Positions 4,302 through 64,000 of a DNA stretch of 64,000 bases are shown piece after piece. Source of the stretch: a virus; IMG/VR virus record IMGVR_UViG_3300037420_000246, positions 3,642 through 67,641 of that record, one strand, 5' to 3'. A program made the translations under genes and the position numbers. Each line of letters starts with the position of its first letter. Within the stretch, counting starts at the first letter, position 1. The notes below the pieces were generated by a model, which saw only the letters and a program-made list of their open reading frames with translations, did not search any database and was not told the origin of the DNA.

Positions 4302-4325
4302 CATAACTAAGAAGGAAACTCTACC

Positions 4326-4724
4326 ATGACTTTTGAACTGAACACTCTGGCGCTTGAAGACCAAGCTGCACTGCACCTCACCCATCCGGCAACTGATATG
4401 CCACTGTACGCTGACAAGGAAGAAACCAAGCCTGTACAAATTATCCTCAAGGGCCAAGCTTCGCAAACCTATGCACGCGCTGTGGACGCGATGATGAAAG
4501 CAGCAGCGAAGCGCGGCAAGCGTGAAGCCACTCCAGCAGAGGCGCGCGAACAAAGCGTAAACTTCCTTGTTGCTCTGTCGGTCACTGCTGAGAATCTTAC
4601 GCTTGACGGCGAGCCTGTAGATTCCCAAGAAGCTTTCCGTAAACTGTACTCGGACGAGCGTTTTGGTTGGATTAAAACGCAGGTTAATGAGTTCTTGGGA
4701 AAGACGGAGGCGTTCTTGAAATAA
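4326..4724 (+). CDS. Tail assembly chaperone (gpG-like)
   Basis: 132 aa acidic protein immediately upstream of tape measure; contains slippery heptamer GGGAAAG near 3' end. Confidence 0.7.
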   Translation: MTFELNTLALEDQAALHLTHPATDMPLYADKEETKPVQIILKGQASQTYARAVDAMMKAAAKRGKREATPAEAREQSVNFLVALSVTAENLTLDGEPVDSQEAFRKLYSDERFGWIKTQVNEFLGKTEAFLK

Positions 4725-5227
4725 TCGAAGAACAGCTTCTGCTATATGTCAGACAAATGGCGTGGCTTGGTGCTACGCCTGACAAGCAAAGCTGCTCTCG
4801 ACTAGAGGCCATTCAAAACAATGTGCCTCTTATTCAAGAACGAATAGATTCAGATTTACCTGAAGACAATATAAGCAGTACAACAATAGCTCCTTTAGAG
4901 GTAAATTTGCCCGAAATCCCCTCGGCTTATGCACACCTAAAGGAGCTATTCTTTTTATCAGGCCAAGGAACTAGCACTGGCATGGGCCTTGCTCCGCTAT
5001 CTTGGCAGGAGTTGCAAGCCTTCCGTACAGAGAACAAGCTAGAGCTAACTCTTTGGGAGCGGCAGACACTGAAGAAGATGTCAGAAGCATACTGTGCTGA
5101 AGCATCTCGTGCAACGGACCCGAAACGTCCTGCACCATACGCACCACAAAAAGAAGATGAAGAAGTAGACAAGATTGCATTGGCAATAAAGATGCGCGAT
5201 GCGTTGAATGCATTTAGAAAGGCTTAA
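4326..5227 (+). CDS. Tail assembly chaperone G-T fusion made by programmed -1 ribosomal frameshift
   Basis: Zero-frame G GGA AAG at 4697-4703 (identical to lambda G/GT slip site); -1 frame is open from 4691 (stop TGA 4688-4690) to 5227 and contains ORF 4757..5227; G stop at 4722-4724. Confidence 0.65.
4697..4703 (+). promoter_or_regulatory. Slippery heptamer GGGAAAG (-1 PRF site)
   Basis: X XXY YYZ in the gpG reading frame, 25 nt before G stop. Confidence 0.65.
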
Positions 5228-5229
5228 AT

Positions 5230-8200
5230 ATGGCACTAGAGGCAAGCTCACTACAAGTCGTGGTTTCCGGGTCGGGAATCGAGGCGACAACTAAACAACT
5301 TAACGACCTCGCAGCGGCTGGCGAGAAAGCCGAAAAGAGTACAACTAAGCTTGCTCAATCCTCTAAGGATAGTTCCAAAGCCCAAGTAGATGCTGCCCAA
5401 CAAGCTGCCTCTCAGTACAACGCCATCATTGATATGATGACGGAGAAATCCAACACATATTATGCCGACAAAGCTGCCAAAGCTGCTATTGCTGCTCAGC
5501 AGGAGCTTTACGATGGCATGGTAATGATGGATAAGTTGCGTGCCGGTGCTGAAGGTTATTACGCCGATCAGGCGGCCAAGCGAGAGAAAGACCATCAAGA
5601 TGTATTGGCGAAACAGCAAGCTCAGAAGAACGCTGCTGAGGCACGCTATGCTGCTGAACAAGAGCTTGCCAATCGCATGAATGCTGCCTTCGATAAGCGG
5701 CAAGCTCAGACTGAAGCTATGGCGATTAATGCCAAATTGGATGCTGACACAAAAGCTCTGAAAGCCGATGGAGATGCGTTCACAGCTATGCTTAAGACGC
5801 AAGCTGAAAAAGTTGGCTTGACTACTAAAGAACTCCGCGAATATAACGCAGAACAGCTTCGTACTAAAGCAGCACAGCTTGGACTTATGCAGGCAGGCAG
5901 TGAGTCCAAGGATAAAATTGACGGTTATATCAACACCATCAAGAATGCAAAAGGCCCGCACGAGTCCTTTAACCTCCTCACCGCAGGCTCTGCACGCGAA
6001 CTGATGGTGTTGACTCACGAGCTTAGCCAAGGGCAGTTTCAGCGCTTTGGTGGCTCTCTTATCGTGTTGGCAGAACGTATTAACTTCTTGCCTAGCGTGC
6101 TTGAAAAAGCTGGTGCTTTTGCAGCAAGCCTTGGAGTGAGTTTGGGAGTGCTTGTTGCTGCTGTGGCTGCTGTTGTTGCAGTGGTGGGTACAGCAATATG
6201 GACATTCACTAAGAGTGGTACCGCACTGAAAGAAATGCGCAATGAAGTGATTTTGACAGGTCACTCAATCGGTGTTACAGGCGATCAACTGTATGACATG
6301 GCTAACAAGATTGGCGAGGCTACAGGCAAGTTTGGTGCTGCTCGTGAAGCTGTTATCCAACTGGCATCCACTGGCAAATTCACTGCTGACCAAATCAAGT
6401 TGATTACTGAAGCTGCTGTAGGTCTTGAAAAGTATGGTGGTGTTGCAATTGACAACACAATCAAGCAATTCGAAAAGCTTGCTGCTGAGCCGATTAAAGG
6501 CGCTCAGCGTGGATTCAAAGGTGTGTCTGAAGCAGCAATGGAGCTTGATAAGCAGCTTCATTTCCTCACTCCACAAATGCTGGATGAAATTATCCATTTG
6601 GAGCGTATTGGAGATGCAGCAGGGGCATCCAAGAAAGCAATTGGTAGTTTGGCCGAAGAAGAGAAAAAGCGTGTTCAGGAGCTTAAGAACAACCTTACTC
6701 CTATTGGCGTCCTGTTTGACACCATTGCCGAGAAGGCTTCTAAGATGTGGAATAACGTATTCCATAAGAAGTCGCTGACAGAGCAACTGGAAGATGCCAA
6801 GGACAATCTCGCTCAGATTCAAGGTGTGAATGGTGTACATCCTGAACAAACCCACCAAGCCAATGCTATTGCAGAAGTGGCTAGGCTTGAAAAGAAAATC
6901 AGGGATCAAGCTGAGAAAGAAAAGCAAGAGCAGCACAACAAAGAGGTTGCTCGCACAGCAGAATTGGCGCTTATCCATCGCCGTACTCTGCTTGATATGG
7001 GCAAGGATGAGGATACTCTAACAGCACAAACTGCGCGCGATGCAGCAGACCGTGCAGCGATTAAGGCAGCAGGGCTTAAGTCTGAACTATTCTCTGCTGA
7101 AGCAGATGCCGAAGCAATGGCAATCATTGAGAAGAAATACAAGCAGAAAGTTACACCAACTCCCGGCCTTGGTATGTCCAAGGTGAATTCGCGTATCGCT
7201 GAATTGCAAATGGAGTTTGAGAAGGCTTCTTATTTCGCAGATAAGGAAATGAAGCTGGAGCAAGACAAGGCTAAGCATCATGAAGTGTCTGCCCTCAAAC
7301 TTTATAACGATCAGCAGAAGTATTTCAATGATCGACAGAAACTGATTGATGATACAGAGGCAAAAGAGATTGCTGCCACTAACCTATATGACCACGGTGC
7401 GAAGAACAAGGACAAGCTGGCAGAAGAGGCTGCAACCAAACGTTTTGAAATTGAGAAGCGCTACGACATGCTGCGAGGAAAACTTGCTGCTGATCGAGAC
7501 GCCGCCGACACTGCATTGGAACGTGCAAACAAAACTGCCGAAGACAACCGGGAAGAAATGTATGTCAAAGGCACTCAAACTATCAATGCTGAGACAAAAG
7601 CCCTTCAAGACAAGATCGCTGGCTACAATCTGATCCCTGAAGCCATCCGTAAGGCTGGCATCAGTGAGAAACAGATGCAGGACTATTTCACTCAGGCTGA
7701 GATTGACAACATCCAAGAGCGCATTGATGCTCTGAAGCAGTTCGATGGGGTTGACGGCACAATGATGGCGGCTGAAATCGCTCGTCTGAATGCTCGGAAG
7801 AATGCTTTGGATGACAAGCGCAAGGCTCAGAAGGCTTGGGAGGATGTGCAGGCTGGGAATGCTGCCGCCCTTAACACCCCAGCAGCAATGAAAGCCAACG
7901 CTGCTGAACAAGTGAAACTGTGGAAAGACGCTGGCAACGAGATTCAGAAAGCGCTTACACAAGCTTTTGGTGAATCTGGTAAAGCTGCTGGTGAAATGTT
8001 TAAAGCATTCTCGGAAGGCCAAGCTAATCAAATCGATTTGACACAGAAAGTTGCTGAAGCTAACAGGCGCACCGACCTCTCAAAAATTGAGCAAACACAG
8101 CTTATCACAGCCCTGCAAAATCAGCAAGAGCAGAATCAGTTGAACATGTATGGCAACATGGCGAATGCTGCATCACAGTTTTTTGACCATCAGTCTAAGG

Positions 8201-22370: not shown

Positions 22371-22633
22371 TATTTATCCCATCCAATTTCTACAGCTTTC
22401 TCAAGGGCTTTGATGAGGTGTTTTACATCCTCTTTGCGGACAGTTGCATAATGACCATTAAGGGAGTTCTCAATATAGATAAATCGGTCGTTGACACCAA
22501 GCTCCGAATTGACAACATTGGTAATAAAATCTACCACAGCAGAGCCGTCTTCATTACAAGACGCTGCAAAATAAACTCGCGTAACTTCTCTCGATTCGCG
22601 CACATCAATACTTGCCATTGTTTTCTCCTTCAT
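22370..22633 (-). CDS. Hypothetical protein
   Basis: 87 aa ORF. Confidence 0.5.
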   Translation of the reverse strand: MKEKTMASIDVRESREVTRVYFAASCNEDGSAVVDFITNVVNSELGVNDRFIYIENSLNGHYATVRKEDVKHLIKALEKAVEIGWDK

Positions 22634-23580
22634 TTGCCATGATTCGTAAGACTGTTTTGTTTCGTATGCTCAGAAATATTCGTCCTACTCCTGTTCATCT
22701 TACCACAATCCATGCAGTTGTAGAGAGCAAATGTAGAAGCATTTGTATAGTATTTCTTATCAATCAGAGAAAGCTTCTCGCTTCCGCAGCATACACAACG
22801 CACCTTACCAGCAGGCTCATACAGAGCAACGTTAGGATGGGTCTTGCTCCAATGGCGCAGTCGCATATACACTTCTTCCAGCACCACGACATCTTGGACG
22901 TTGTACTCCAGCATCTCTTCAAACGCATCGTCGTCCATCGCCATACAACGAGTCCACAGTTCAAAGCCACTATGGCTCATCTTGCGAGGGAGGCCAAGAT
23001 ATGCGGCAATGCTGTCAAGGCTGTTGCTTGGGAATCGGAATTCAGCCTTAGCAATACGCAGCGTATCTACAATCTTAGAAGGGCTTGGAGGCGTCATGCC
23101 GAGTGCCACCATACGAGTCTTGATAAGAGGAATATCGAATTTCTGCGCATTGTGTGCTACGATTAGGTCGGCATTGCTCATCAACTCCGAAAGCTCTCGC
23201 ACCAATACTTCATCATTCCGTGCTTCATAAATACGATTAGAAACAATCGTTTCTTCACCAAGCCATTTCGCAGAGTAGGTGAGAAGGTAGCCTTCATTGA
23301 CAACCTGCTTCTGGCTCACAGTTTGATCCCACCTCCCCCACACATAAGCAGTGGTTGGAGCACATTCAATGTCCAGCAAAAGAATTTTAGCACTCTGAGG
23401 AACAGTGCCCTCTGCTGGCTCCACTTCCACTTTCTTGAATTTAAAATACTTGCGTAGATGGTCGCTAACCGTGGACTTGGCCTCTCCAATCAGTCGTGCA
23501 ATCTCTCGCCACGACATTTCAGGATGCTCGTTAGCAAGCTTCACGCTCAAAACTTTCCAATCCAATTGTTGCTCGCTCAT
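22630..23580 (-). CDS. DEDD-family 3'-5' exonuclease (DnaQ-like) with N-terminal HTH and C-terminal zinc ribbon
   Basis: Exo I LLLDIECAPT, Exo II VAHNAQKFDIPLI, Exo III YNVQDVVVLEEVY; N-terminal SWREIARLIGEAKSTVSDHLRKY HTH-like; C-terminal CVCCG...CMDCG. Confidence 0.65.
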   Translation of the reverse strand: MSEQQLDWKVLSVKLANEHPEMSWREIARLIGEAKSTVSDHLRKYFKFKKVEVEPAEGTVPQSAKILLLDIECAPTTAYVWGRWDQTVSQKQVVNEGYLLTYSAKWLGEETIVSNRIYEARNDEVLVRELSELMSNADLIVAHNAQKFDIPLIKTRMVALGMTPPSPSKIVDTLRIAKAEFRFPSNSLDSIAAYLGLPRKMSHSGFELWTRCMAMDDDAFEEMLEYNVQDVVVLEEVYMRLRHWSKTHPNVALYEPAGKVRCVCCGSEKLSLIDKKYYTNASTFALYNCMDCGKMNRSRTNISEHTKQNSLTNHGK

Positions 23581-23777: not shown

Positions 23778-24409
23778 TCCTCCACCAATCCTTTCTTCAA
23801 TTCTTCCTTGCGCTCTTCATAACTCTGAATAAGTCTATTATGATGCTCGATGTTCTGCTCTGCAATCTTAATGCTGCTGTCAAGCTGCGCCAGTTGCTCG
23901 TTGATTTCCTTGTTGCGACGGAGTTGTTCGGCAGTGAGTGGCTTGGGTTCGTAGAGTGTCCACCAACCCCCATCAAACCTGTAGGAGATTTCAGACTCAC
24001 TGTATCGACATCCCGCACCTTCTTCTCCAATGTTCCCGTAGTGCCAACAGCGCCACTCATTGCCATCTCGGGTCATTGTGAGTTTGTCATTTCCACCAAT
24101 GGTGTTGATGAAGTGGAATACATCAGGATACTTGCTAGGCTTTTTACTTTCTTCTGCAATCACCCAGCCACCATCGCTCACACACCCCTCCACCTCATAC
24201 TTATAAGTTTCGCCCCAAGGAACCTCGTCAATCTCGTTGGCCCACCCTCGTGCCCACTTCACTTTCACAATATCTCCTTCTACTTTCGCACTGTGAGTGA
24301 AGCCGGGATTAGACCTGAGACGAAAGCTAAACTTGTTTGGCAATTTCATTGTTATTCCCTCCTTAAAATTGTTATGCACATTATACATTGAATTCTTGTT
24401 TGCTGTCAA
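23774..24409 (-). CDS. Hypothetical protein with C-terminal coiled coil
   Basis: 211 aa ORF; Trp/Gly-rich core, K/E-rich C-terminal helix. Confidence 0.5.
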   Translation of the reverse strand: MTANKNSMYNVHNNFKEGITMKLPNKFSFRLRSNPGFTHSAKVEGDIVKVKWARGWANEIDEVPWGETYKYEVEGCVSDGGWVIAEESKKPSKYPDVFHFINTIGGNDKLTMTRDGNEWRCWHYGNIGEEGAGCRYSESEISYRFDGGWWTLYEPKPLTAEQLRRNKEINEQLAQLDSSIKIAEQNIEHHNRLIQSYEERKEELKKGLVEE

Positions 24410-24975
24410 GAGGCGTTTCGTAAGATTTCCTCTAAAGCTTTCTTCCTCTTTGCAGCGTTCGATAGATTATTATATCCGTGCTGCTCTAGAAGAGCAAGAA
24501 GTTCTTCCTTGTTTTCCTTCTTCATAAGACGGATAACTTCTTTATCTATCTTAGCGTCCTCAAAACTCATCTTGGGGTGTTTCTGCATGTGAGAGACGAC
24601 CGCATGGCATGACTTACACAAGCAGCGCATGTCTGCGTAAGTGAGCATAAACAGGTGTCTTGCATACTTCTCGACATCATCCATGTTCCTGAGAGTGCTG
24701 CTGTCTCCGATATGATCTACTTCAATGTCTCCCTGTACATGAGGGGCACCACACAACTCGCAGTCAATGCCCCATATCATCGCATGATTGCTGGAGAACT
24801 TCTCTTTCGGGTTAGGAATCTTACGTCGCTTGGATTGCTTGTACAAGTGCTTCAATGGGTACTTAGACCACCCTTTTCTCAGAACTCCACGAACCCACGT
24901 AATGAACTTAGATTCGCTTCCCCAAGGGTTGTTTGGTTCTTCCCAAGGCTTTGCGTCTTTACGGCCTGTAGACAT
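24406..24975 (-). CDS. HNH homing endonuclease
   Basis: CELCGAPHVQGDIEVDHIGDSSTLRNMDDVEKYARHLFMLTYADMRCLCKSCHAVV contains the HNH C..C...(E)VDH...N...C..CH signature. Confidence 0.7.
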   Translation of the reverse strand: MSTGRKDAKPWEEPNNPWGSESKFITWVRGVLRKGWSKYPLKHLYKQSKRRKIPNPKEKFSSNHAMIWGIDCELCGAPHVQGDIEVDHIGDSSTLRNMDDVEKYARHLFMLTYADMRCLCKSCHAVVSHMQKHPKMSFEDAKIDKEVIRLMKKENKEELLALLEQHGYNNLSNAAKRKKALEEILRNAS

Positions 24976-26172: not shown

Positions 26173-27201
26173 TCAGAATGGTGCATCGTCTTCCGGGTCA
26201 GTTACAGGAGTTTGCTGCTTCGTAGCAGGCTCGACAGAAACTGCACCACCTTGCCCATTAGGATACTTAGCACGAATCTCCTGCAAGTCCTTATCCGACT
26301 CAAGAATCTTCTCTGCAATCTCCTTGGCCTTAGCAATCAGCTCTTTCTCGCCGTCTTCGCCCATGCGCTCCAGAACAGCTTCACGCATCTTGGAGCCCTT
26401 ATACTCCTCTGCCAGAACAATCTTGCGCAGATCAGCAATTCGCACCAGATCAAACTTAGCCACACCACCAAGCTCTTCTTTCACTTCAAGCAGATCGTCG
26501 TCATCAAAATTCACGGACACAGCAGGCATCAGAGCAGGCTCAGGTTTCATGCCTTTCATCAGGGGCACAGGAGACTTGAGTTTGGTGTTGACAAATTTCT
26601 TGTCGTCCTTCTCCGTCACCTTGACATCCAGATTAAACATGAAAGGCTTACCCAGCAGTTGTGCGATGTCGTTAAGCTTAGGATTCTTGTAATCAGGCTT
26701 AAAAATAACATCACTCACCTTCTCACCATTCTCATACTTCACAACGCCAGCAATCTTGTAGAATTGCGAAGTGGATGCAAGAATCCAAGGTCGTCCTTTA
26801 ATGTAAGCATTCGTCTTCGGGTCACGAGGGGCTACAGTGGTGAAGTTGAGGCCATCCGACATACCACGGCTAACAGGGTGCAGAGGCAGACGAATGTTTT
26901 TCACACCAATGTCACCTTCGTAGTCATGCGTCTGGTCCAGCAGGTCAACATAGCAAGCAATCTTCTGTTCTACAGCATTCTCCTTGGGCCACAGAATCTT
27001 GTCTTCACCAGTGTCTTCATCCTTCTCACGATTGCCAGCGTTGTCCTTGGCAAACTTAGGCTGCTTCTTGTGCGAGCCAAGATCAACCAGAAGACCAATC
27101 TGAACAGCTTGCAAACCGTCTTCAGGAATGATTGGGACAAACTCTTTGCGTTCCGCGCTATCCGAATTTACAGCAGGAGCATTAATGTTACGTGGTTTCA
27201 C
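26173..27201 (-). CDS. Putative single-stranded DNA-binding protein (acidic SSB-like C-terminal tip)
   Basis: 342 aa; C-terminus ...TDPEDDAPF resembles SSB D-D-D-I-P-F tip; located between FEN and replication genes. Confidence 0.4.
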   Translation of the reverse strand: MKPRNINAPAVNSDSAERKEFVPIIPEDGLQAVQIGLLVDLGSHKKQPKFAKDNAGNREKDEDTGEDKILWPKENAVEQKIACYVDLLDQTHDYEGDIGVKNIRLPLHPVSRGMSDGLNFTTVAPRDPKTNAYIKGRPWILASTSQFYKIAGVVKYENGEKVSDVIFKPDYKNPKLNDIAQLLGKPFMFNLDVKVTEKDDKKFVNTKLKSPVPLMKGMKPEPALMPAVSVNFDDDDLLEVKEELGGVAKFDLVRIADLRKIVLAEEYKGSKMREAVLERMGEDGEKELIAKAKEIAEKILESDKDLQEIRAKYPNGQGGAVSVEPATKQQTPVTDPEDDAPF

Positions 27202-29470: not shown

Positions 29471-31543
29471 TTATGGTTTAATTACCAGTTTCTCTGCTTC
29501 AGCGACGTAGTAGTCATAGTCAATGTCTCCAACAAAATCTTCCACATCATTACAGGGTTTTACAAACCAGTCAGCGTCAATAGAAAGCCTGCGTTCTTCG
29601 CCACCGGCTTCCAACGGAGGCATAATTTTAACAAGTTTACCACCTGACTTACACGGATAGTAACGGCAAATATTCTGCTGCTGGATTTCCGTACCATCCT
29701 CCATTACAAGCACAAGACGGCTGCTGCGTGGCACTTTTGTGCGAAGCATGAAATCAAACTTCTCTGTGTGATTTGTAATAAACTCACGGATATCAACCCC
29801 ATGAAGCATGTGCGCTTCTGCTGCCATTGGAATCACCAGTGACGAATGGTTTTTGTGCCAACCCAAATCCTTGTATTCGTAAGCACCTTTGTTCTTCGTT
29901 TTACCGTCTGTGTATAAGGCAATGTAGTTGTTGACATCCCTGATATACATTTTGTCGTACTCAGCAAACTCTAGTTGCAAACCAACCTGCTTCTGCCAGT
30001 CTTCACAAATCTTGTCGTAATGCTCTCGTGTATTACGTTTGAGGGCGACAGTAACACCATCCGTATTCACCTGAATCAGTTTCAAACCTTCAATCGTCAG
30101 CAGCTTTTCAGCCAGCAGGCAAAGCGACAACTGACCATTGATCGTGATTTTCATGGTGTACATCGGGTCAAAGAACGGGCTGTATTGGTTGTTTGAGTCG
30201 CCATACACACCATTCAGCGCCAGTTTAAGCATCGCGTTCTCAGCCGTTTTCTTGCCATACGATTTGCGTTGTTCGTAAACGTCTTTGTAAATCTCGCAAA
30301 ACTTCTTCGACAAGTGTTCGGGATAGACGTTATTAGCAATTGCAATGTTCGGGTACATTGAGCTAACGTCAGCGTCTACAATCTGATAAGTGCTCGTCTG
30401 CTTCGCAATCTTGCTATTCAAACTACCGTGAATTCCACCAGTACCAAAGTCAAAACGAAACCCATCAACTACAACATTCAAATTTTCCGCTACACGATAA
30501 CACGCCCAATATGAATATTGTGTTTCCCCTTTCTTCTTTGCCTTCAATTCCACCTTGTCAAACCACCCGCAAGGATGTTCACGTTTGAATTGGTCGTATT
30601 CTGCCCTAGTAGGTTCAGCTTTCCATTTCTTCCGCTTCACAACCATTTCAGCGTATTTCGCTACATCGCCAAGTTTGTGTTCTTCAATATCGGAAAACAC
30701 ACCTTTGGTTTCACGAATAACCTGCTTCGAAAGCCAGTCTTTGACAGCAATGAATTCAGGACGTTTGAAATCGTAATACGAGAAAAGACAATCTTTAATA
30801 CGAATACTGTCTCGTTTCGTCTGATTCATCTTACGCTTACCATCTACGATTTTATACACCGGAATCTTGCTCTCTTCCAGTCGCATAATGAAGTAGTCCT
30901 TGCCGATCTTCGTATCATTGTGGTTCATGAAGTCACGACCGTATTTCGCGGTAAGCTGCTCACGAAACTCCACTTGTGTAATGCTGTGTTTGTAGAAGGC
31001 TAACGTCATCTTAACGTCATGAGCATTATACTTAATCAGTGTGTCAATCTGTTCACTGTTTAATTCCATTCCAACAGGAAACGGAAGGTCTTCAATGTTC
31101 TTCTCGCGCATATTGAATTCCAGCATTTTCAAGCTGGTCATCTTCGCTTTGTTATCGAAGTGGTGAACCTTGAACAAATCGATTTGCTTTACATGACGAT
31201 CTTCAGCTTTCACAGTGTTGGCGAACTCACCCTTCATGCTCTCGATCTGTTCTTGTGCAAACTTATACACTCGCTTTGCAATCGTCTCTCCCTTCACAGG
31301 AAGCCTATCACGAATGGCAAGAAGTTTGTGGAGAACAGGATAGTCAAAGTTCAGATTGTTGAAACCAACAAGGAAGTCATCTTCATTTGCAATATAATCT
31401 AGGCAAGCAAAAATCCTGTTTGTTTCATTCTTGCGAGCACTCACCTCAAAAGTGTTGGCGAATTTTCCGTCTTCACGGATAACGCTGAAAGTGAATACGT
31501 TCGGGTAAGTCTCGATGTCAAATACCCATTTCCTATTCCCCAC
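29471..31543 (-). CDS. DNA polymerase, family B, with 3'-5' exonuclease domain
   Basis: Exo I FDIETYPN, Exo III YNAHDVKMT, polymerase motif A DADVSSMYPNIAIANNV (DxxSLYPS), motif B KLALNGVYGDSNN (KxxxNSxYG), motif C VNTDGV (DTD). Confidence 0.85.
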   Translation of the reverse strand: MGNRKWVFDIETYPNVFTFSVIREDGKFANTFEVSARKNETNRIFACLDYIANEDDFLVGFNNLNFDYPVLHKLLAIRDRLPVKGETIAKRVYKFAQEQIESMKGEFANTVKAEDRHVKQIDLFKVHHFDNKAKMTSLKMLEFNMREKNIEDLPFPVGMELNSEQIDTLIKYNAHDVKMTLAFYKHSITQVEFREQLTAKYGRDFMNHNDTKIGKDYFIMRLEESKIPVYKIVDGKRKMNQTKRDSIRIKDCLFSYYDFKRPEFIAVKDWLSKQVIRETKGVFSDIEEHKLGDVAKYAEMVVKRKKWKAEPTRAEYDQFKREHPCGWFDKVELKAKKKGETQYSYWACYRVAENLNVVVDGFRFDFGTGGIHGSLNSKIAKQTSTYQIVDADVSSMYPNIAIANNVYPEHLSKKFCEIYKDVYEQRKSYGKKTAENAMLKLALNGVYGDSNNQYSPFFDPMYTMKITINGQLSLCLLAEKLLTIEGLKLIQVNTDGVTVALKRNTREHYDKICEDWQKQVGLQLEFAEYDKMYIRDVNNYIALYTDGKTKNKGAYEYKDLGWHKNHSSLVIPMAAEAHMLHGVDIREFITNHTEKFDFMLRTKVPRSSRLVLVMEDGTEIQQQNICRYYPCKSGGKLVKIMPPLEAGGEERRLSIDADWFVKPCNDVEDFVGDIDYDYYVAEAEKLVIKP

Positions 31544-33344: not shown

Positions 33345-34604
33345 TTACTGTATTTTACTTGGCAGGTTGTTGTGTGTCAAGGGGTTAGTGTCAACATTGT
33401 TGAATAGCCACTCGTCTACAAAGTCTACTACATCTTGGTACAGTTCTGGGTAGGTAGCTTCGGTCATAAAACCCTCAACCTCTTGCGAAAACCTAGGAAA
33501 AGTGGCTTTTATGGCTTTCTCCACCTCCCATGCTTGCCGACCTGTCATCTGGAAAATCTCCGTCTTACCCAATCTAAAGCCAGCCCTCCTAAGATTTCTA
33601 TCGTGATCCGTCAAGCGCCTGTCCGGTGCATTTGAAATCCCGTACCCTGTAAAACCGTGCCTGCCTTCTACGAGCAAGATGTACAAGTGCCCATCTTTGT
33701 TTGTATCAAACCCACCCTTAGCACAACTGGGACACCCACTGCAATTGTAGAGGAAAGCGTCAGCCCGAGCCAGCCAGTTGCCATGCTCCTCGCAGTGCAT
33801 CACGCATCTGCTGTCAAAACCTGAATACTCCCCATCCCAATCTACAAACTTGTACTTCAAGCCTCGTTCTGCAATCGTCTTTGTTATTAGATGTTGCCTT
33901 TGTTCGGGCGTCCATCTAAAGTGTGGTCCACACCGACACGATTTTGCCCCTCGCTTTAATGACTCTACGTGCTGCTCAAAAACTCCTGTGCAAACGCCTG
34001 CCTTCACAAAATCATCATTGCTGCACACGGAGCATGTAACATTCCAATAATTTCTTTTCTTTCCAGACCCTCGTAGACTTCTAGAGAAGGTAGTCCCTTC
34101 AGGGTACAACCCGGCCTCTAAAAACATAATAATCATGTCGTCATCAGATTTTCTGTAGCGATCCCCAGTAACCTTTGCTGCACAACTTGGACAGCCAACA
34201 TCCAACAAAAAGTTTGTTACAGTGGTTGAAGCCCAGCAAAACTGACAAGTCTGACACTCCAACTTCAGCTTAGTGGCAACCCCTTTGTATTCCTCTGCGT
34301 ACCCTATAAGTCTATACCCTTTGTCTTCTGCTGATCTTTGGACCTTCACCAACGTCTGTTTTTCTGTCAACCTTGCAAACTTAGAACATCCGCAAGGTTC
34401 AATGTTACGATCAATTATCGATTTTGGAGTTAGATAAATTCCATCACCGAACATTTCAGGGTCTTCACTACAAGTGTGGCACTTCACTTTGTAAATCCGA
34501 TCTTTCTTACCCCGGCGGTAGCCATCAAATGCTAGTATTTCTAACTGACCGTCCTTGCCATAACGTTTTCCTATAAATTTTGTATCATCAAATGGAGGAC
34601 TCAA
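33345..34604 (-). CDS. Homing-endonuclease-like protein: zinc-ribbon repeats + T5orf172/GIY-YIG-like domain (paralogue of 2931..4301)
   Basis: Repeated GCPSCA / GCSGCPSCA Cys modules; C-terminal GHLYILLVEGRHGFTGYGIS motif; same architecture as the + strand gene at 2931. Confidence 0.6.
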   Translation of the reverse strand: MSPPFDDTKFIGKRYGKDGQLEILAFDGYRRGKKDRIYKVKCHTCSEDPEMFGDGIYLTPKSIIDRNIEPCGCSKFARLTEKQTLVKVQRSAEDKGYRLIGYAEEYKGVATKLKLECQTCQFCWASTTVTNFLLDVGCPSCAAKVTGDRYRKSDDDMIIMFLEAGLYPEGTTFSRSLRGSGKKRNYWNVTCSVCSNDDFVKAGVCTGVFEQHVESLKRGAKSCRCGPHFRWTPEQRQHLITKTIAERGLKYKFVDWDGEYSGFDSRCVMHCEEHGNWLARADAFLYNCSGCPSCAKGGFDTNKDGHLYILLVEGRHGFTGYGISNAPDRRLTDHDRNLRRAGFRLGKTEIFQMTGRQAWEVEKAIKATFPRFSQEVEGFMTEATYPELYQDVVDFVDEWLFNNVDTNPLTHNNLPSKIQ

Positions 34605-34786
34605 ATTTCCTCCATCTCTTTAAGAATTTTACGCTGCTTCGCAAGGAGGCGTGCCTTCTTGATCTTTGCAACAATCTCTGCATTATCTTTTTTCTTATAA
34701 TACATTATTTGTTGCGTAATCGCGGCTACAGTGCTGGCGGCTACGTGGTCTGCAAGCTCTTCTACTGTGCAGGTTTTGTAATTCAT
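34601..34786 (-). CDS. Hypothetical small protein
   Basis: 61 aa; strong SD GAGGAG; first gene after an internal minus-strand promoter. Confidence 0.45.
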   Translation of the reverse strand: MNYKTCTVEELADHVAASTVAAITQQIMYYKKKDNAEIVAKIKKARLLAKQRKILKEMEEI

Positions 34787-34809
34787 AAATTCTCCTCGGT
34801 TAAAAGGAG

Positions 34810-34839
34810 ATTATAACATATTTATTGATTCTTGTCAAG
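34810..34839 (-). promoter_or_regulatory. Sigma70-like promoter (minus strand): -35 TTGACA, 18-nt spacer, -10 TATAAT
   Basis: Plus-strand ATTATA at 34810-34815 and TGTCAA at 34834-34839, between primase-helicase stop and the 61-aa gene. Confidence 0.5.
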
Positions 34840-34847
34840 TTTTAAGA

Positions 34848-36506
34848 CTAAAACGTAGGAGCTTCGTTATCTACAAGAACAACTTCCCCGGTTTCATCGT
34901 CAATATAGAATTCATCGCAGATGCCCAAATAGCCATGTGCCCGGTTTTTCATAACAGTTAGCCTCACATTACCACGGCTCTTGTCAGGGCGAATTTGAGG
35001 CTCAAGTCCAAGCACAGTCCAAGCAAGCTGCTCAAGACAAGAAGAACTGCGAAGTGCCTCCTTAGTAATAGGAACCCAAAAAGGTTCTGATTCCTTACCT
35101 TTGGGCGGTTTGAAGCCTTCTGCGATAGAGCGGTTAAGATGCGACACGAGAATTACACAAACATCACTAGCAGCGCAGAATGCCGCTAACTTGGTCATCA
35201 CCATATCCAGTTCACGGCGCTCATCTGTAATTCCTGCATCCCCAAGAATCATGCCGATGTGATCCAGCAGTAGGTACTTGACTTTGTTGGCGTGAACAAA
35301 ACTCTTAATTTTGTTCATGAGTGTGTCAAGTGGCATAGAGCCGAAATGGTCGAGCAAAAACACTTCTCGCTCTTTCGTCACCCAGTTATATGCATCTTGA
35401 ATCTCTTCTTGGGAGGCGCAGGCCAGCGGGTTCTCTTTGAAACGGTTGTAGTTCACCTTCAGCCTCATTGACATAAGCCGTTGGATAGACTCTTTAGCTG
35501 TTTCTTCCAACATCATCATTCCGATTCGTTCGCCAGCTTCAAGGAATCTATACATAAAATGGCTTGTGACGAGGCTTTTTCCAACATTCGAAGGCGCAGT
35601 GAATACAACAAGCTCCCTTGGTCGGAAGCCGTGTAGTTTGTGATCTAGCTTAGGGAAAACTCCGGTATATACGCCCTCTACTCGTGGTGCCAGAATTTCG
35701 TCTAGTTCAATACTACTTGCCGTAATGATCTTCTCAGCAGTGTAAGGCTTTTTACCAAACTGCACCAGTTTTGCCAACTCATCCGATTTTCCGGCTTGGA
35801 GCATGTCGGACGCATCTTTGAATCCGTCTGGATAATCAACCACTGTCAATTCCATATCGGACAGCACAGCGGCTACATCCTCTCGTGCCTCAAGTCCGCG
35901 CTTAATTTTCTTAAGACGCTCTACAGGTGTAGCACAATCTGAATCAAATGCGATACAGCAGGCTTCAAATGATCGAATAAACGCCTCATTGTGAATTGTG
36001 GCTTCTTGTGCGTTAGCTGTGCCCATTGGGACACTGACGACGAACGGCTCCAAGTCTTCAAACTTAGTCCCTTTAACTTGGTCCCGCATGGCTTGGTAGA
36101 GACTTAAACAGTCCAATTCACCTTCCACATAAGTTAGTGAAGACCTTTTACGTTTAATTCCTTCTGCAACATCTTGACCAAACAATTTATTTGTGATCTG
36201 GACTGATGCCACAACACTCCAATGACCCTTCTCCCCCTTGCTTTTACTAAGGTCCATCTTTTTGAAGCCGCGAACGACTCCTTTTTGGTCGTATGATGGG
36301 AAGTACAGAGCTTCAAGCGTGCGCCCGTCACGCTCAGATACAGCACCCCTAACACCGAATTTTTCGCACGTTTCTTTACGAATCTTCCGGTCTGGAATAT
36401 CCACAAACGGAAGTTCCAACACATCCTTCAAAGTTTCTTTCGGCACGAATTCAGTCATTTGTTTTGTCTGTCCTTTCCAATAACCCATCAACCCTCCCCA
36501 CACCAC
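34848..36506 (-). CDS. Bifunctional DNA primase (TOPRIM) / DnaB-like replicative helicase
   Basis: TOPRIM acidic motifs (YVEGELDCLSLYQ; IAFDSDCATP) N-terminal; Walker A APSNVGKS, Walker B LLLDHIG, VSHLNRS helicase motifs C-terminal. Confidence 0.8.
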   Translation of the reverse strand: MVWGGLMGYWKGQTKQMTEFVPKETLKDVLELPFVDIPDRKIRKETCEKFGVRGAVSERDGRTLEALYFPSYDQKGVVRGFKKMDLSKSKGEKGHWSVVASVQITNKLFGQDVAEGIKRKRSSLTYVEGELDCLSLYQAMRDQVKGTKFEDLEPFVVSVPMGTANAQEATIHNEAFIRSFEACCIAFDSDCATPVERLKKIKRGLEAREDVAAVLSDMELTVVDYPDGFKDASDMLQAGKSDELAKLVQFGKKPYTAEKIITASSIELDEILAPRVEGVYTGVFPKLDHKLHGFRPRELVVFTAPSNVGKSLVTSHFMYRFLEAGERIGMMMLEETAKESIQRLMSMRLKVNYNRFKENPLACASQEEIQDAYNWVTKEREVFLLDHFGSMPLDTLMNKIKSFVHANKVKYLLLDHIGMILGDAGITDERRELDMVMTKLAAFCAASDVCVILVSHLNRSIAEGFKPPKGKESEPFWVPITKEALRSSSCLEQLAWTVLGLEPQIRPDKSRGNVRLTVMKNRAHGYLGICDEFYIDDETGEVVLVDNEAPTF

Positions 36507-46212: not shown

Positions 46213-46236
46213 ATGTATGGGCAGGTGTCATACCTG

Positions 46237-46308
46237 CTACGACAGAGCTTGTCGCAAAATCTACGACAGGGGTTGTCGCTACAGGTGTGACAGAGCTTGT
46301 CGCAAATA
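46237..46308 (+). repeat. Three tandem 24-bp iterons (nnnnGACAGrGsTTGTCGCnnnnn)
   Basis: CTACGACAGAGCTTGTCGCAAAAT / CTACGACAGGGGTTGTCGCTACAG / GTGTGACAGAGCTTGTCGCAAATA; further GGGTTGTC half-site at 46322. Confidence 0.6.
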
Positions 46309-46684
46309 TGCAACAAAATATGGGTTGTCTGGTCATATCGTTTGCTGTGACATTCGGTTACTTTGTGTAGACACGATAACCCATTCATAAGAATCTTACA
46401 AGCACATTCTAGAGGGAGTTACACATGTGAGATTGTTGCATTGCCACATTCCATACAGTTGTCTTGTTGACCATAGGTAACTTCCCATAGCATGATGTAC
46501 AGCAAACGGCAATAGATTTTAGAGCGCACGGTTAAAATTTTTCTTGTGTTGCTGGGAATGTTGTTTTATAGTGTCACTCATGGACAGCAAGCAGAGACAA
46601 GGTGGAATGTCAAGATTGCCCTAGCTGCCCTGCTAGGTGGCTGTACAACAAACTAACTGAATACAAACTTAAGGAGAATTGAAC

Positions 46685-61837: not shown

Positions 61838-62029
61838 ATGGTCAAACTCGTCAACGCAAAGGCTGCACAAAAATTCCACGTAAGCACAGCCACAGATGAT
61901 TGCACCGTGGAAGCTGGCGATACAGTGGTAGTTATCGAAAAGGTTGACTTGCACACATATCGGATAGAAGTAAAGAACGGTATGCGCTGCATTGTGAACG
62001 AAGACCTATTGATTTTCAATCAATGCTAA
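61838..62029 (+). CDS. Hypothetical protein
   Basis: ATG 61838 with SD CAGGAG downstream of predicted TSS; track ORF 61775 would start inside the promoter. Confidence 0.5.
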   Translation: MVKLVNAKAAQKFHVSTATDDCTVEAGDTVVVIEKVDLHTYRIEVKNGMRCIVNEDLLIFNQC

Positions 62030-62052
62030 CCAGAACCAACAGGAGAAATGAC

Positions 62053-62187
62053 ATGACCAAGAAAGAGCTTGTAGCACTCGTCACGAAGTTTGGCGGGTGG
62101 ATGGAAGGCGATGTTGCACGGTTTCCCTCTGTGTATCAGAAGGAGCAGTTTGAGAAAGCGCTTGCTGCGAGCAAGGCGAAAATATAG
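62053..62187 (+). CDS. Hypothetical small protein (44 aa)
   Basis: Not in track; SD AGGAGAAATGACATG. Confidence 0.35.
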   Translation: MTKKELVALVTKFGGWMEGDVARFPSVYQKEQFEKALAASKAKI

Positions 62188-62229
62188 CAGAATTCAACGA
62201 ACCACAATTCAAACATTCAGGAGAATAAA

Positions 62230-62361
62230 ATGTTTCTGTTCAAACGTGAAACGGGAAGTATGGGCGGCTGGGAATTCGTCTCTTACGTGGAGAACGCCCC
62301 ACAAGAATTGACCAGCACTACCCACGAGTATTGCTATTTCTTCATCAGCACAGAAGTGTGA
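62230..62361 (+). CDS. Hypothetical small protein (43 aa)
   Basis: Not in track; SD CAGGAGAATAAAATG. Confidence 0.35.
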   Translation: MFLFKRETGSMGGWEFVSYVENAPQELTSTTHEYCYFFISTEV

Positions 62362-62480
62362 GCGAATTCTATTGCAATTCAGAGCCATCTAGGCGTTTTC
62401 TCGGCTGGGTGGCACTCGGATAGCACTTCGTGCCCGTTCGTTGAATGTGGCGTTATTTTGTGAAGATGAAAGGGGAAACA

Positions 62481-62798
62481 ATGAAACTGATAACAAAACA
62501 ATCGAAGGTGAAGGGAGCTATTCAAAGTTTCCTGAACAATTATCCATTATACAATAAGTCCAGTGCTCCATTCTACACACAAGAGCGTTACAACAAAGTA
62601 GTGGCACTCGATCCTGAGACGGCTACACCAGAGGATATTGAGATGGTGTTAAATCCTTCGTGGGTACAATGTATGTGCTACGAGTGTGGATGTTGTGTTG
62701 ATGCTGTGGTACAGATGGGACAAGAGCCGGATTATGAGAGTATTTGGGTGGAGGTTTGTAAGGGGTGTTTGCAGAGGGCTTTGGGGATGGTGGATTGA
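62481..62798 (+). CDS. Hypothetical Cys-rich protein
   Basis: ATG 62481 with SD AAAGGGGAAACAATG; CMCYECGCC...CKGC. Confidence 0.5.
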   Translation: MKLITKQSKVKGAIQSFLNNYPLYNKSSAPFYTQERYNKVVALDPETATPEDIEMVLNPSWVQCMCYECGCCVDAVVQMGQEPDYESIWVEVCKGCLQRALGMVD

Positions 62799-63115
62799 GA
62801 ATGCACATCAAATACCCGCTTTAAGCGGGGTTTCTATTATCTATGATTATCGTTGCACTCTTGCACCACAAAAATTAGTCTTACTCGCTGGCGCTCGCGC
62901 TTAAAGCATTGCACACAAACCAATCTTATCTATTCGTTGCACTGCGCGAGCCGTAGGCGAGAGGAGGGCAACACAGAGCGAAGCGATGGTTATCTGTTCC
63001 TCTGTGGAGGCGAAGCCGTAGCAGAGATAAGGTAAGAATGATTGTCTTAAGGATTGAACGTCCTTAAGTTATCTTTTCTCTTATCTATTCTCTTATCTGT
63101 TAGTACGGTAAAAAA

Positions 63116-63184
63116 GCGGGGTTTTGCACCTCTCTAATGCGGGGTTATCAACCTCTCTAAAGCGGGGTTTTGCACTCCTACGAC
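63116..63184 (+). repeat. Tandem 23-bp direct repeats GCGGGGTT(T/A)T(G/C)CA(C)CTCTCTAA(T/A)
   Basis: GCGGGG at 63116, 63139, 63162 (period 23) plus palindromic copies at 62817-62836 and 63197-63216. Confidence 0.55.
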
Positions 63185-63229
63185 ATATCCTAATACCCGC
63201 TTTAAGCGGGGTTTATGCATTCTGTAAGC

Positions 63230-63258
63230 TTGACAAATAGCATTGTTCATGTTACAAT
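63230..63258 (+). promoter_or_regulatory. Consensus sigma70 promoter TTGACA-N17-TACAAT
   Basis: TTGACA 63230-63235, 17-nt spacer, TACAAT 63253-63258; 30 nt upstream of ATG 63289. Confidence 0.6.
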
Positions 63259-63288
63259 GTTTCTGTAGTAAATCAATCAAGGAAAATT

Positions 63289-63474
63289 ATGCAACTTAAT
63301 CTTAACCCGGAAGTTGCCATCTGGATAGATGCGAACAGAGGCGAACTGTCTAGGCAAAAGTTTATTCTAACTCTTGTCAAGAAAATGATGTTGCAGGATA
63401 CTCAATCTACTAAGGATAACAATGGAAAAAACAATCTCCCCAATGGAGCTATCCACGCTCCTGTGCAAGAGTAA
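63289..63474 (+). CDS. Small DNA-binding regulator, ribbon-helix-helix-like
   Basis: 61 aa; N-terminal beta strand QLNLNPEV then two helices (AIWIDANRGELSRQKFILTLVKKMM); first gene after consensus promoter. Confidence 0.45.
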   Translation: MQLNLNPEVAIWIDANRGELSRQKFILTLVKKMMLQDTQSTKDNNGKNNLPNGAIHAPVQE

Positions 63475-63931
63475 TGATTCTTGTGTCAATCTGTCACTCG
63501 CAGAATTCCGCGTGCTGACATACCTCCTAGCCTGCGCCAATACCAAAGATGGTGAAGGATATAAATGCTGGCCCAGTACAGACGCTATATCCGAACATAC
63601 AGGCATACACATCAAAACAGTTGAGAAAGTAAGAAAGACACTCGTTGACAACGGCTGGATGCAGTATAAATCCGGCAAAGGTAAGGGAAACTGCAACACT
63701 TATTATGTTAATGGGTTTAAGATTGTCGAGTGCTACATTAAATCCGGCAATGAACGGCCAAAGGGTGCGATTGCTGCTGCAAACCTAGAGGCACCTAAGA
63801 AGGTACGAGACCGCAACATTAAGGGCTTGAAGCAAGGTAAGAGCACGCCAGTGCAGGAGAAGCCTGTAGAACCTCCTAAGCCAGCAAATAATGCGTATGA
63901 CCATTATGATAGCGACGAACCGCCGTTCTAG
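63422..63931 (+). CDS. Winged-helix DNA-binding protein, replication-initiator/organiser-like N-terminal domain
   Basis: LSLAEFRVLTYLLACANTKDGEGYKCWPSTDAISEHTGIHIKTVEKVRKTLVDNGWM wHTH-like; basic linker; acidic C-terminus DSDEPPF; overlaps upstream gene by 53 nt. Confidence 0.45.
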   Translation: MEKTISPMELSTLLCKSNDSCVNLSLAEFRVLTYLLACANTKDGEGYKCWPSTDAISEHTGIHIKTVEKVRKTLVDNGWMQYKSGKGKGNCNTYYVNGFKIVECYIKSGNERPKGAIAAANLEAPKKVRDRNIKGLKQGKSTPVQEKPVEPPKPANNAYDHYDSDEPPF

Positions 63932-63939
63932 CATACATT

Positions 63940-63960
63940 GCCGCCCGAAGGCGGCTTTTG
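63940..63960 (+). terminator. Rho-independent terminator
   Basis: GCCGCC-CGAA-GGCGGC followed by TTTTGC; same stem as 55008 terminator. Confidence 0.6.
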
Positions 63961-64000
63961 CTATTGTACCATACAAACAACACTCTTAAGGGACAAACAT

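Follow-up and report, generated by a model that had tools for sequence, protein, structure and literature searches.

A candidate iteron-type replication origin and its putative winged-helix initiator in an uncultured freshwater phage

Where does a virulent phage begin to replicate its DNA, and by means of which protein? To our knowledge, origins and initiators have not been described for most virulent phages, including the abundant freshwater relatives of the Limnohabitans and Curvibacter phages. The question is raised here by a repeat-rich, non-coding gap of 490 bp (62799-63288) in a stretch of 64,000 nucleotides (positions 3,642 to 67,641 of the IMG/VR record IMGVR_UViG_3300037420_000246), which is called the window throughout. 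The source is a novel, uncultured tailed phage of fresh water that appears to be virulent, with a genome of about 85-90 kb. On the + strand the gap is followed by two overlapping genes, 63289-63474 (61 amino acids, aa) and 63422-63931 (169 aa). A first-pass annotation had proposed that the region is an origin, a packaging site (pac or cos), or a genetic switch. The first of these proposals has gained substantial comparative support and autoregulation fits the position of a palindrome beside the promoter, whereas packaging is unsupported. We give about even odds (a probability near 0.5) to the reading that the region is an iteron-type origin with an autoregulated minimal initiator, the gap being its cis half and the two genes its trans half. 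An autoregulatory switch role may exist alongside the origin function.

Repeats, A+T-rich tract and promoter of the gap

The gap holds only two short open reading frames (ORFs), 62853-63035 and 63124-63240. Neither is kept in relatives, in which large deletions and substitutions run across both, and they were rejected as genes. The features of the unit, from its upstream border to its terminator, are the following:

62445-62798: ORF of 117 aa, the upstream border of the gap
62811-62833, + strand: distal palindrome block AATACCCGCTTTAAGCGGGGTTT, with the palindrome at 62815-62829; begins 13 nt past the stop of the upstream ORF
62840-63045, no strand assigned: variable spacer, in which conserved blocks are broken by lineage-specific deletions
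63046-63068, no strand assigned: hairpin CTTAAGGA-N7-TCCTTAAG, of which only two CTTAAG hexamers recur in relatives
63065-63105, + strand: A+T-rich tract, pyrimidine-rich on this strand, with three 12-mers (TTATCTTTTCTC, TTATCTATTCTC and TTATCTGTTAGT)
63113-63181, + strand: three iteron-like direct repeats of 23 bp, each with the core AAGCGGGGTT or ATGCGGGGTT
63192-63214, + strand: proximal palindrome block, identical to the distal one; candidate operator
63230-63258, + strand: sigma-70-type promoter with extended -10, 11 of 12 positions, pointing from the repeats into both genes
63289-63474, + strand: ORF of 61 aa, overlapping the winged-helix gene by 53 nt
63422-63931, + strand: winged-helix protein of the HTH_36 family, 169 aa, with a predicted folded DNA-binding domain (residues 7-105) and a predicted disordered part (107-169)
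63940-63955, + strand: intrinsic terminator GCCGCCCGAAGGCGGC-TTTTGC, 9 nt past the winged-helix stop, closing the two-gene unit

All the sequence features listed in the first-pass annotation are present, some of them 1-7 nt away from the coordinates it gave. The five copies of GCGGGGTT lie at 62825-62832, 63116-63123, 63139-63146, 63162-63169 and 63206-63213; three are in the 23-bp tandem units and two in 23-nt blocks that bear a palindrome. This palindrome, CCCGCTTTAAGCGGG, had been described as a perfect hairpin at 62817-62836 and 63197-63216 and is found at 62815-62829 and 63196-63210, each time within the identical block AATACCCGCTTTAAGCGGGGTTT (starts 62811 and 63192, 100% copies). According to Tandem Repeats Finder (TRF, score 98) the tandem units span 63113-63181 rather than 63116-63184, and the two copies of TCTCTTATCT, placed before at 63073-63097, fall within a 12-nt x 2.5 array at 63069-63098 (TRF). 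The hairpin of CTTAAGGA and TCCTTAAG is at 63046-63068 instead of 63045-63067, and the arms of a long-range inverted repeat (GCTCGCGC and GCGCGAGC) are at 62893-62900 and 62944-62951 instead of within 62891-62950.

The clustering of the repeats is beyond chance and specific to the gap. AAGCGGGGTT has four exact copies in the 64 kb, every one of them in the cassette region and within about 400 bp; when one mismatch is allowed, five of the eight matches fall within the same ~400 bp, while 2.9 are expected across the whole 64 kb. The four matches of CTTATCTRTTC in the window are likewise all at the cassette, and two of the three tandem arrays found by TRF in the whole window are in the gap. The right arm of the proximal palindrome is a fourth repeat core in phase with the others, 44 bp beyond the third, which gives a phasing of 23/23/44 bp. 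The centre of this palindrome lies 27 bp upstream of the -35 hexamer of the promoter, TTGACA-17-TACAAT, which was confirmed at 63230-63258 with a TG before the -10 and is the top match within 56-64 kb. The distal palindrome block, which scored terminator-like on both strands, is a candidate dimer-binding site and may have a further role as a weak bidirectional terminator.

Beside the repeats, the tract at 63065-63105 belongs to the least stable 0.01% of the 40-bp windows in the 64 kb (nearest-neighbour stability), and is a candidate DNA-unwinding element. In iteron origins, helically phased initiator sites adjoin an A+T-rich unwinding element, sometimes with repeated 13-mers, and the A+T-rich tract of lambda shows strand asymmetry (PMC5043065, PMC4980987). 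The layout of the gap matches that of textbook iteron origins, which supports the origin reading.

Ten related cassettes and their co-variation

Nine further cassettes were reached through homologues of the winged-helix protein in metagenome contigs from IMG/VR, the Joint Genome Institute (JGI), Logan, and NCBI, the long ones being of 80-94 kb. The set of ten comprises the window, L008, L018, L011, L020, L027, L009, L013, L024 and L025; the alignment took in eight of them, and the motif maps took in all ten. Comparison with related phages had been named as a check in the first-pass annotation, and it showed that the ten cassettes keep one layout, in the order: low-stability T/C-rich tract, direct repeats, palindrome, near-consensus promoter, and small ORF overlapping the winged-helix gene. 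Across the cassettes, the elements have these properties:

Distal palindrome: 350-406 bp upstream of the -35 in types A, B and C (types as given below); also in type A' (L027)
T/C-rich tract: the least stable 40-mer in 10 of 10 cassettes, 124-181 bp upstream of the -35; 76-83% A+T and 68-85% pyrimidine on the + strand
Direct repeats: 3-5 copies of a 7-8-nt core, with a spacing of 21-23 bp
Proximal palindrome: its right arm is the last core
Promoter: 9-12 of 12 matches, 17-nt spacer in 10 of 10, TGn in 9 of 10, TTGACA invariant in 8 of 10
Winged-helix gene: 169-209 aa, overlapped by the ORF of about 61 aa

In all ten cassettes the least stable 40-mer sits immediately upstream of the repeat array, and a 61-aa-type ORF is present and overlaps the winged-helix gene. 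An inverted repeat with the iteron core is found near the promoter of the putative initiator, the last core starting 13-37 bp upstream of the -35 (13-17 bp in seven cassettes, 25 bp in the window, 37 bp in L027). Overlap occurs only in L024, where a core at -6 overlaps the -35 hexamer in place of the palindrome. The distal palindrome of the relatives carries the core of its own lineage (TGCCTCACAGTGAGGCA in L009, TTGCCTCTCAGGGATGCA in L013). According to the core, the following types can be distinguished:

Type A, core AGCGGGGT: window, L008, L018, L011, L020
Type A', core AGCGGGGT with AACGGGGT variants: L017, L027
Type B, core TGAGGCAT: L009
Type C, core AGAGGCAT / AGATGCAT: L013
Type D, core GGGGGAT: L024
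Type E, core GCGGTATATCA: L025

A change of core goes along with changes in the palindromes, in the winged-helix protein (recognition helix and wing) and in the small ORF at its N-terminal residues. The promoter and the T/C-rich tract stay constant, as do several blocks, of which TTAGTACGG is one. Since the repeat core co-varies with the adjacent proteins, one or both of them probably recognise the repeats, a conclusion supported by comparison for the 61-aa protein, the winged-helix protein, or the two together. Both co-vary when residues are set against repeat types, so that the binder is not singled out. With an HTH_36 gene 200 bp downstream of the repeats, the locus has phased direct repeats, an adjacent A+T tract of low duplex stability, and a cognate initiator-type gene that co-varies with the repeats, as iteron origins do.

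The position of the proximal palindrome also suits another explanation, namely that the unit serves purely for transcriptional control, with an autoregulated repressor/activator pair, an operator array and no role in replication initiation. Such a unit could possibly set the timing of early genes or close a ~380-bp loop between the two palindromes. It is the chief rival of the origin reading, and we regard it as unlikely on balance. The palindrome does adjoin the -35 hexamer of its own operon, and a core overlaps it in L024; moreover, the unit is insulated by the upstream hairpin and the downstream terminator, and two of the loci (L010 and L031, described below) suggest that the cassette can be lost or replaced. 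However, the promoter already agrees with the consensus at 11 of 12 positions, and most of the sites, at 50-130 bp and about 400 bp upstream of it, are poorly placed for simple repression while activation is unneeded, and a conserved, low-stability, strand-asymmetric tract beside phased repeats has no obvious role in an operator. If the unit were only a transcription switch, it would be an ordinary autoregulated operon with an unusual tail, and its interest would narrow to the partners of that tail.

Since the genes on either side are not the same from one locus to the next, the unit behaves as a mosaic cassette, and it occupies varied internal positions in the contigs of 80-94 kb. In L024, a helicase of the UvrD/REP type (superfamily 1; 3288-4763) comes directly after the winged-helix gene, which supports the origin reading. 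As regards the same place in other loci, L025 has an ORF (3114-3818) with a GIY-YIG-type endonuclease signature, as read by eye, and the window phage has an ORF of 56 aa.

Used as a probe, the 18-mer GGCGAAGCCGTAGCAGAG of the spacer recovered true cassettes plus two chance matches within coding sequence (L015 and L016). The palindrome as a probe recovered look-alike plain terminators in unrelated contigs (L029 and L030), and the hairpin alone is therefore not diagnostic.

The two proteins and an SSB-type tip

The first-pass annotation had seen in the 169-aa product a winged helix with an initiator-like N-terminal domain, and profile searches bear this out. PF13730 (HTH_36) matches with 6e-13 and is the only family to pass the Pfam threshold, and the PHROG matches are to N-terminal domains of initiators (replication initiation, O-like and DnaD-like families), covering only the N-terminal 100-140 of their 300-380 positions. 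The best PHROG matches of ten diverse family members are likewise initiator N-terminal domains only. In the AlphaFold2 model, residues 7-105 form a winged helix and residues 107-169 are disordered, with a predicted local distance difference test score below 50 in the linker. A Foldseek search with this model gave only generic winged helices (MarR, Fur, CRP, DnaD-N), none with an E-value below 1e-3, and a sequence search of the PDB gave no match. The resemblance of the domain to the origin-binding domains of initiators supports the origin reading. Judged by its sequence, the protein appears to fall outside each of the characterised initiator families (Rep_3 WH1-WH2, lambda O, DnaD-like, RepA_N), because only the origin-binding type of domain is present.

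What follows this domain is a tail of the kind known from SSB, the protein that binds single-stranded DNA. The protein ends in DSDEPPF (peptide ...NAYDHYDSDEPPF), that is, acidic-x-Pro-Phe, like the C-terminal tip of SSB; relatives end in DSLECPF or DEDCPF. All ten cassettes and nine close homologues keep the terminal PF without exception, while the linker that precedes it varies in length and sequence. In its published definition, the C-terminal element of SSB (SSB-Ct) consists of a disordered linker of poor conservation, followed by Asp residues, a Pro in the penultimate position and a Phe at the C-terminus; mutation of the penultimate Pro (ssb-113) weakens partner binding, and the Phe is buried in pockets of the partners (PMC10164576). 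By sequence, the tail of the 169-aa protein corresponds to this definition. The difference is in what carries it: a predicted winged helix for duplex DNA and not the oligonucleotide/oligosaccharide-binding (OB) fold that binds single-stranded DNA, so the protein is a carrier of the tip and not an SSB. No description of a site-specific duplex-binding protein with an SSB-type tip was found in a literature search.

A profile search of 1.84 billion representative proteins returned 54 clusters at E < 1e-10 (120-234 aa), which puts the size of the family at about 54 clusters at 50% identity. Of these 54 distant members, 37 close with PF or PY, preceded by eight residues of which four on average are acidic; the family alignment (47 sequences) was too diverse for locus searching. 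Two short conserved motifs stand out in the otherwise variable linker and may be extra docking motifs: RNTxGLxQGK, which reads RNIKGLKQGK at residues 131-140 of the window protein, and NPDGSPxxxxNGxRxYSW, which the window protein has lost.

The family appears to be confined to uncultured phages, as it was not found in the cultured phages, PLSDB plasmids and GTDB genomes searched. Megablast of the region and tblastn of the protein gave no real match in cultured phages, only weak ones to a 'replication initiation protein' of Acinetobacter phage AB1; PLSDB yielded only two marginal Microvirga matches, and GTDB none. A metagenome scan for the family gave three loci, namely two near-identical A' cassettes and one contig of 1 kb.

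The same tip occurs a second time in the window phage. EDDAPF is the end of a 342-aa protein encoded on the minus strand at 26173-27201, in the replication block and outside the cassette. Its homologues represent a core gene of the phage group (114 clusters), and 101 of the 110 full-length ones end in PF, the commonest tail being DMDDDIPF. Most of the homologues have tails of this type, which are the same as the tip of bacterial SSB. It has no match in Pfam, in the PDB or to a named PHROG, and it is likely an SSB-like hub of the phage replisome or an unrecognised SSB-like/annealing protein. The acidic-Pro-Phe tip is thus shared by the winged-helix protein and a core protein of the replication module, which supports the origin reading.

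These protein data bear on the transcriptional explanation as well. In its favour, one source annotates the homologues as MarR-family regulators, and the structure search gives the winged helices of MarR, Fur and CRP. Moreover, a transcription factor can use a docking motif for a replication protein, as does MuC, the C protein of phage Mu (PMC12867686), and the tail might couple transcription to replisome proteins in the way that MuC is coupled to the sliding clamp. Against it, all the sequence-family matches are N-terminal domains of initiators, and the tip is common to a protein of the replication module.

Systems of the ParR and TubR type typically have direct-repeat arrays to which small proteins bind, with tails that in turn bind a partner. 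The arrangement of array and tail would therefore also suit a centromere-like or DNA-organising site, at which the tail holds a motor or a recombination/repair enzyme. Possible purposes are plasmid-like segregation in a carrier state, seeding of recombination-dependent replication, and sequestering of host nucleases that interact with SSB. The weak structural matches include the centromere-binding winged helices TubR and AspA, a small serine recombinase is encoded 2-4.5 kb downstream in several relatives, and the tip of SSB also binds RecQ, RecJ, ExoI, RecG and RecO (PMC10164576). Nonetheless, we consider this explanation quite improbable: no gene for a partition NTPase adjoins the cassette in any locus, the absence of the family from the plasmids and bacterial genomes searched gives no sign of a prophage or plasmid state, and the explanation gives no account of the conserved A+T tract or of the initiator-type domain matches.

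In small terminases a winged helix at the N-terminus is common, as is binding to sites that are repeated. The proposal of a pac or cos site, with the winged-helix protein as a small-terminase-like recognition subunit, has this in its favour and is scarcely credible on the rest of the evidence. The window opens with tail genes, and a terminase was identified neither there nor in the rest of it nor in the 6 kb downstream; the neighbours of the cassette are small early genes, and its promoter is of host type; for the C-terminal half of the protein disorder is predicted, with no oligomerisation domain; there is no PHROG terminase match; and the internal position of the cassette varies among the contigs of 80-94 kb.

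With respect to the smaller product, the label of ribbon-helix-helix protein given in the first-pass annotation is compatible with the predicted secondary structure, although family, sequence and structure searches lend it no support. The AlphaFold2 model of the 61-aa protein has an extended N-terminus (residues 1-6), helices at 7-15 and 17-39, and a G-x-x-S-R turn; residues 1-40 thus comprise the extended N-terminus and two helices, and the tail is predicted to be disordered. No match was found in Pfam, PHROGs, the PDB sequence search or Foldseek, nor by hhalign against Arc and CopG.

A proposed initiation unit, its parallels and its setting

Under the origin reading, the unit might work as follows. 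Host RNA polymerase would fire the promoter at 63230-63258 and produce a bicistronic mRNA for the 61-aa and winged-helix proteins, ending at the terminator at 63940. The winged-helix protein would bind the three phased 23-bp repeats and the two palindromes of the same core, for which the 61-aa protein is a candidate helper or competitor. The bound array would distort the DNA so that the adjoining 40-bp, A+T-rich, strand-asymmetric tract (63065-63105) melts, aided perhaps by the negative supercoiling behind polymerases that leave the outward-facing promoter. The disordered C-terminal half, with its SSB-like tip, would recruit proteins that dock on SSB tails, the candidates being the phage primase-helicase or polymerase, whose putative SSB-like partner bears the same tip, and, from the host, PriA, DnaG and the chi subunit. 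Finally, binding at the promoter-adjacent palindrome would feed back on the expression of the operon.

Two broader claims are put forward more tentatively. One is that the HTH_36 proteins of the present family are an undescribed class of minimal initiators, in which a winged helix sits on duplex iterons and the SSB-type tip, on a flexible tether, is the sole effector; we think it somewhat less likely than not. The other, to be taken with similar reserve, is that an array of these proteins might display a cluster of 'SSB tails' on duplex DNA, by which the replisome of phage or host would be seeded at a defined place while no single-stranded DNA has yet formed. If the proposal is true, it would offer a sequence-level recipe for origin finding in a whole group of uncultured phages of 80-94 kb, five natural specificity variants of a single protein-DNA recognition system, and a simple principle of recruitment, namely an SSB-type docking tip on a site-specific duplex-binding domain. 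It would also extend the role of the SSB tail beyond single-stranded DNA.

Several well-known systems resemble the cassette in part. The iteron plasmids (pPS10, pSC101, F, P1, R6K and RK2) share with it helically phased direct repeats of about 20 bp, an adjacent A+T-rich element, and an adjacent initiator gene. They also have an inverted repeat of the iteron core at the initiator promoter, which in plasmids serves autoregulation, and short docking motifs of the initiator that recruit parts of the replisome, for instance the motif by which TrfA, the RK2 initiator, recruits the sliding clamp (PMC5043065, PMC4980987). In contrast to their initiators, the phage protein is not of the Rep_3/WH1-WH2 type but a single HTH_36 winged helix with a disordered linker and an SSB-type tip. 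Furthermore, the DnaA and IHF sites are unconvincing here, a second small protein is co-transcribed, there is a second, distal palindrome about 380 bp away, and the carrier is a phage and not a plasmid.

In lambda, too, a phage-encoded origin-binding protein (O) has an N-terminal winged helix, and 'O-like' is among the best PHROG matches of the 169-aa protein. Its repeated sites stand by an A+T tract of about 40 bp with purine/pyrimidine strand asymmetry, and the origin is activated by nearby transcription (PMC5043065). Nevertheless, the iterons of lambda fall within the O gene itself, as inverted repeats to which dimers bind, whereas here they are upstream and mainly direct, and the C-terminal domain of O binds the helicase loader P, where the phage protein has a disordered linker and a tip, with no loader gene after it.

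The order of elements is the same in the double-strand origin and copG-repB operon of pMV158: a hairpin, three direct repeats, a promoter, a small ribbon-helix-helix repressor and an initiator. RepB is an HUH nicking enzyme for rolling-circle replication, while the proteins of the cassette have no nuclease domain and the small ORF resembles a ribbon-helix-helix protein in its predicted secondary structure only. As for tips of this kind on other replication proteins, gp2.5 and gp4 of T7 have acidic, Phe-terminated tails.

The satellite PLE encodes RepA, which binds iterons and needs infection by ICP1 to replicate; ICP1 is a lytic phage with a gp4-type helicase-primase and theta replication from a single intergenic origin (PMC7145576). 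Like the proposed unit, it ties an iteron-binding initiator to a phage replisome of the gp4 helicase-primase type, the difference being that the protein here is of the HTH_36 family and is encoded by the phage itself. The recruitment of the clamp by TrfA and the dependence of PLE RepA on ICP1 are precedents for the proposed logic. MuC is again a small phage DNA-binding protein with a docking motif for a replication protein, in that case the beta clamp (PMC12867686); it is a late-gene activator with clamp-binding motifs, as opposed to an SSB-type motif and an origin-like arrangement of sites.

It is important to note the points that weigh against an origin. It is from comparison and anatomy that we infer origin activity, melting of the tract, recruitment by the tail, autoregulation and the pairing of protein with site. 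The 169-aa protein has no second domain, for oligomerisation or loader binding, of the kind present in the initiator families that it resembles; the structure search gives only generic folds such as MarR and Fur; and no family member was found as the replication gene of any plasmid in PLSDB. GC skew follows gene orientation and gives no origin signal at the cassette. The middle direct repeat carries TTATCAACC (63145-63153), with 7 of the 9 positions of a DnaA box, and an element of this sort (TTATCAACC or TTATCCACC, 7-8 of 9 positions) keeps its position in the second repeat in most cassettes scanned, but such matches are weak, the background being about 3.8 per kb. The IHF consensus is matched in one cassette only, and weakly. 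Elsewhere in the phage there are further A+T-rich promoter regions, and repeats occur in a second gap (46213-46680). Lastly, L010 has a winged-helix gene (5772-6374) with an unrelated N-terminus and with neither repeats nor small ORF, and L031 retains at the syntenic place only the first ~85 nt of the cassette (3314-3400), that is, the distal palindrome and about 60 nt, followed by unrelated DNA. From these two loci, some related phages may lack the cassette or use another. They may reflect a recombination hot spot at the 5' edge of the cassette or a non-orthologous replacement. After the remnant, L031 has a different terminator and a minus-strand P-loop ORF of 449 aa (PHROG 2467, function unknown).

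The conserved blocks of the spacer are TCGTTGCACT (62850 and 62934), TTAGTCTTAC (62875-62884), GGCGAAGCCGTAGCAGAG (63009-63026) and GCGAAGC (62978-62984 and 63010-63016), and deletions of up to about 60 columns separate them in the alignment of eight cassettes, five of which have the 18-mer GGCGAAGCCGTAGCAGAG. There is an internal partial duplication, in which 62949-62967 pairs with 63014-63032. The two copies of GCGAAGC lie within 40 nt, the second inside the 18-mer; this heptamer forms an unusually stable DNA mini-hairpin. A structured RNA gene in the spacer was rejected in view of the large insertions and deletions in relatives, the lack of an Rfam match in 62000-64000 (E up to 1), and folding that is not unusual on either strand (z -1.58 and -0.21).

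In the window, tail, tape-measure and lysis genes occupy the + strand from 1 to 16 kb. A minus-strand block from 16 to 44 kb encodes ribonucleotide reductase, a DNA polymerase with a separate exonuclease subunit, an exonuclease, a gp4-type primase/helicase, ThyX and homing endonucleases, and from 44 kb to beyond the end of the window there are small early-type genes on the + strand, the cassette among them. No tRNA genes were found in the window. There is no close cultured phage at the DNA level; by polymerase, the nearest are Limnohabitans phage DC31 (60%) and Curvibacter phage P26059A (55%), both of them freshwater Comamonadaceae phages. The window phage is present in several JGI metagenomes, namely 3300037312, 3300037418, 3300037419, 3300037466, 3300037467 and 3300038393. 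About nine near-consensus sigma-70 promoters, that of the cassette included, point the same way as the genes, which suggests that the phage relies on host RNA polymerase. With regard to the end of the transcription unit, the terminator was checked in the window and in L008, which has an equivalent hairpin after the winged-helix gene.

On the 3' side of the cassette, twelve further small genes precede a small serine recombinase on the minus strand. Several relatives encode recombinases of this kind (Resolvase domain, 214-228 aa) at 2-4.5 kb downstream of the cassette; their orientation varies, and they are candidate multimer resolvases or invertases. Their coordinates are:

L001, 8474-9136: small serine recombinase
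L009, 10529-11173: small serine recombinase
L010, 8525-9211: small serine recombinase

The gap at 46213-46680, of about 470 bp in the early-gene block, contains only short ORFs, the largest of which (57 aa, Cys-rich) looks spurious. It holds the only other tandem array of the window (46236-46306, 24 nt x 3, CTACGACAGAGCTTGTCGCAAAAT), whose units 1 and 3 contain the inverted repeat CGACA-N6-TGTCG. It lies upstream of a 228-aa ORF with no family match and is possibly an operator-like or origin-like site. The least stable stretch of 40-60 bp in the window is at 34773-34850, between an endonuclease ORF and the primase/helicase gene, which runs over 34848-36506; the stretch has no repeats and coincides with a 12/12 sigma-70 promoter with TG on the minus strand (34838). 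Three genes of the homing-endonuclease type (HNH and related) are found in the tail and replication blocks, at 2931-4301 (+), 24406-24975 (-) and 33345-34604 (-), and the polymerase is split into an exonuclease gene (22630-23580) and a polymerase gene (29471-31543), with endonucleases close by.

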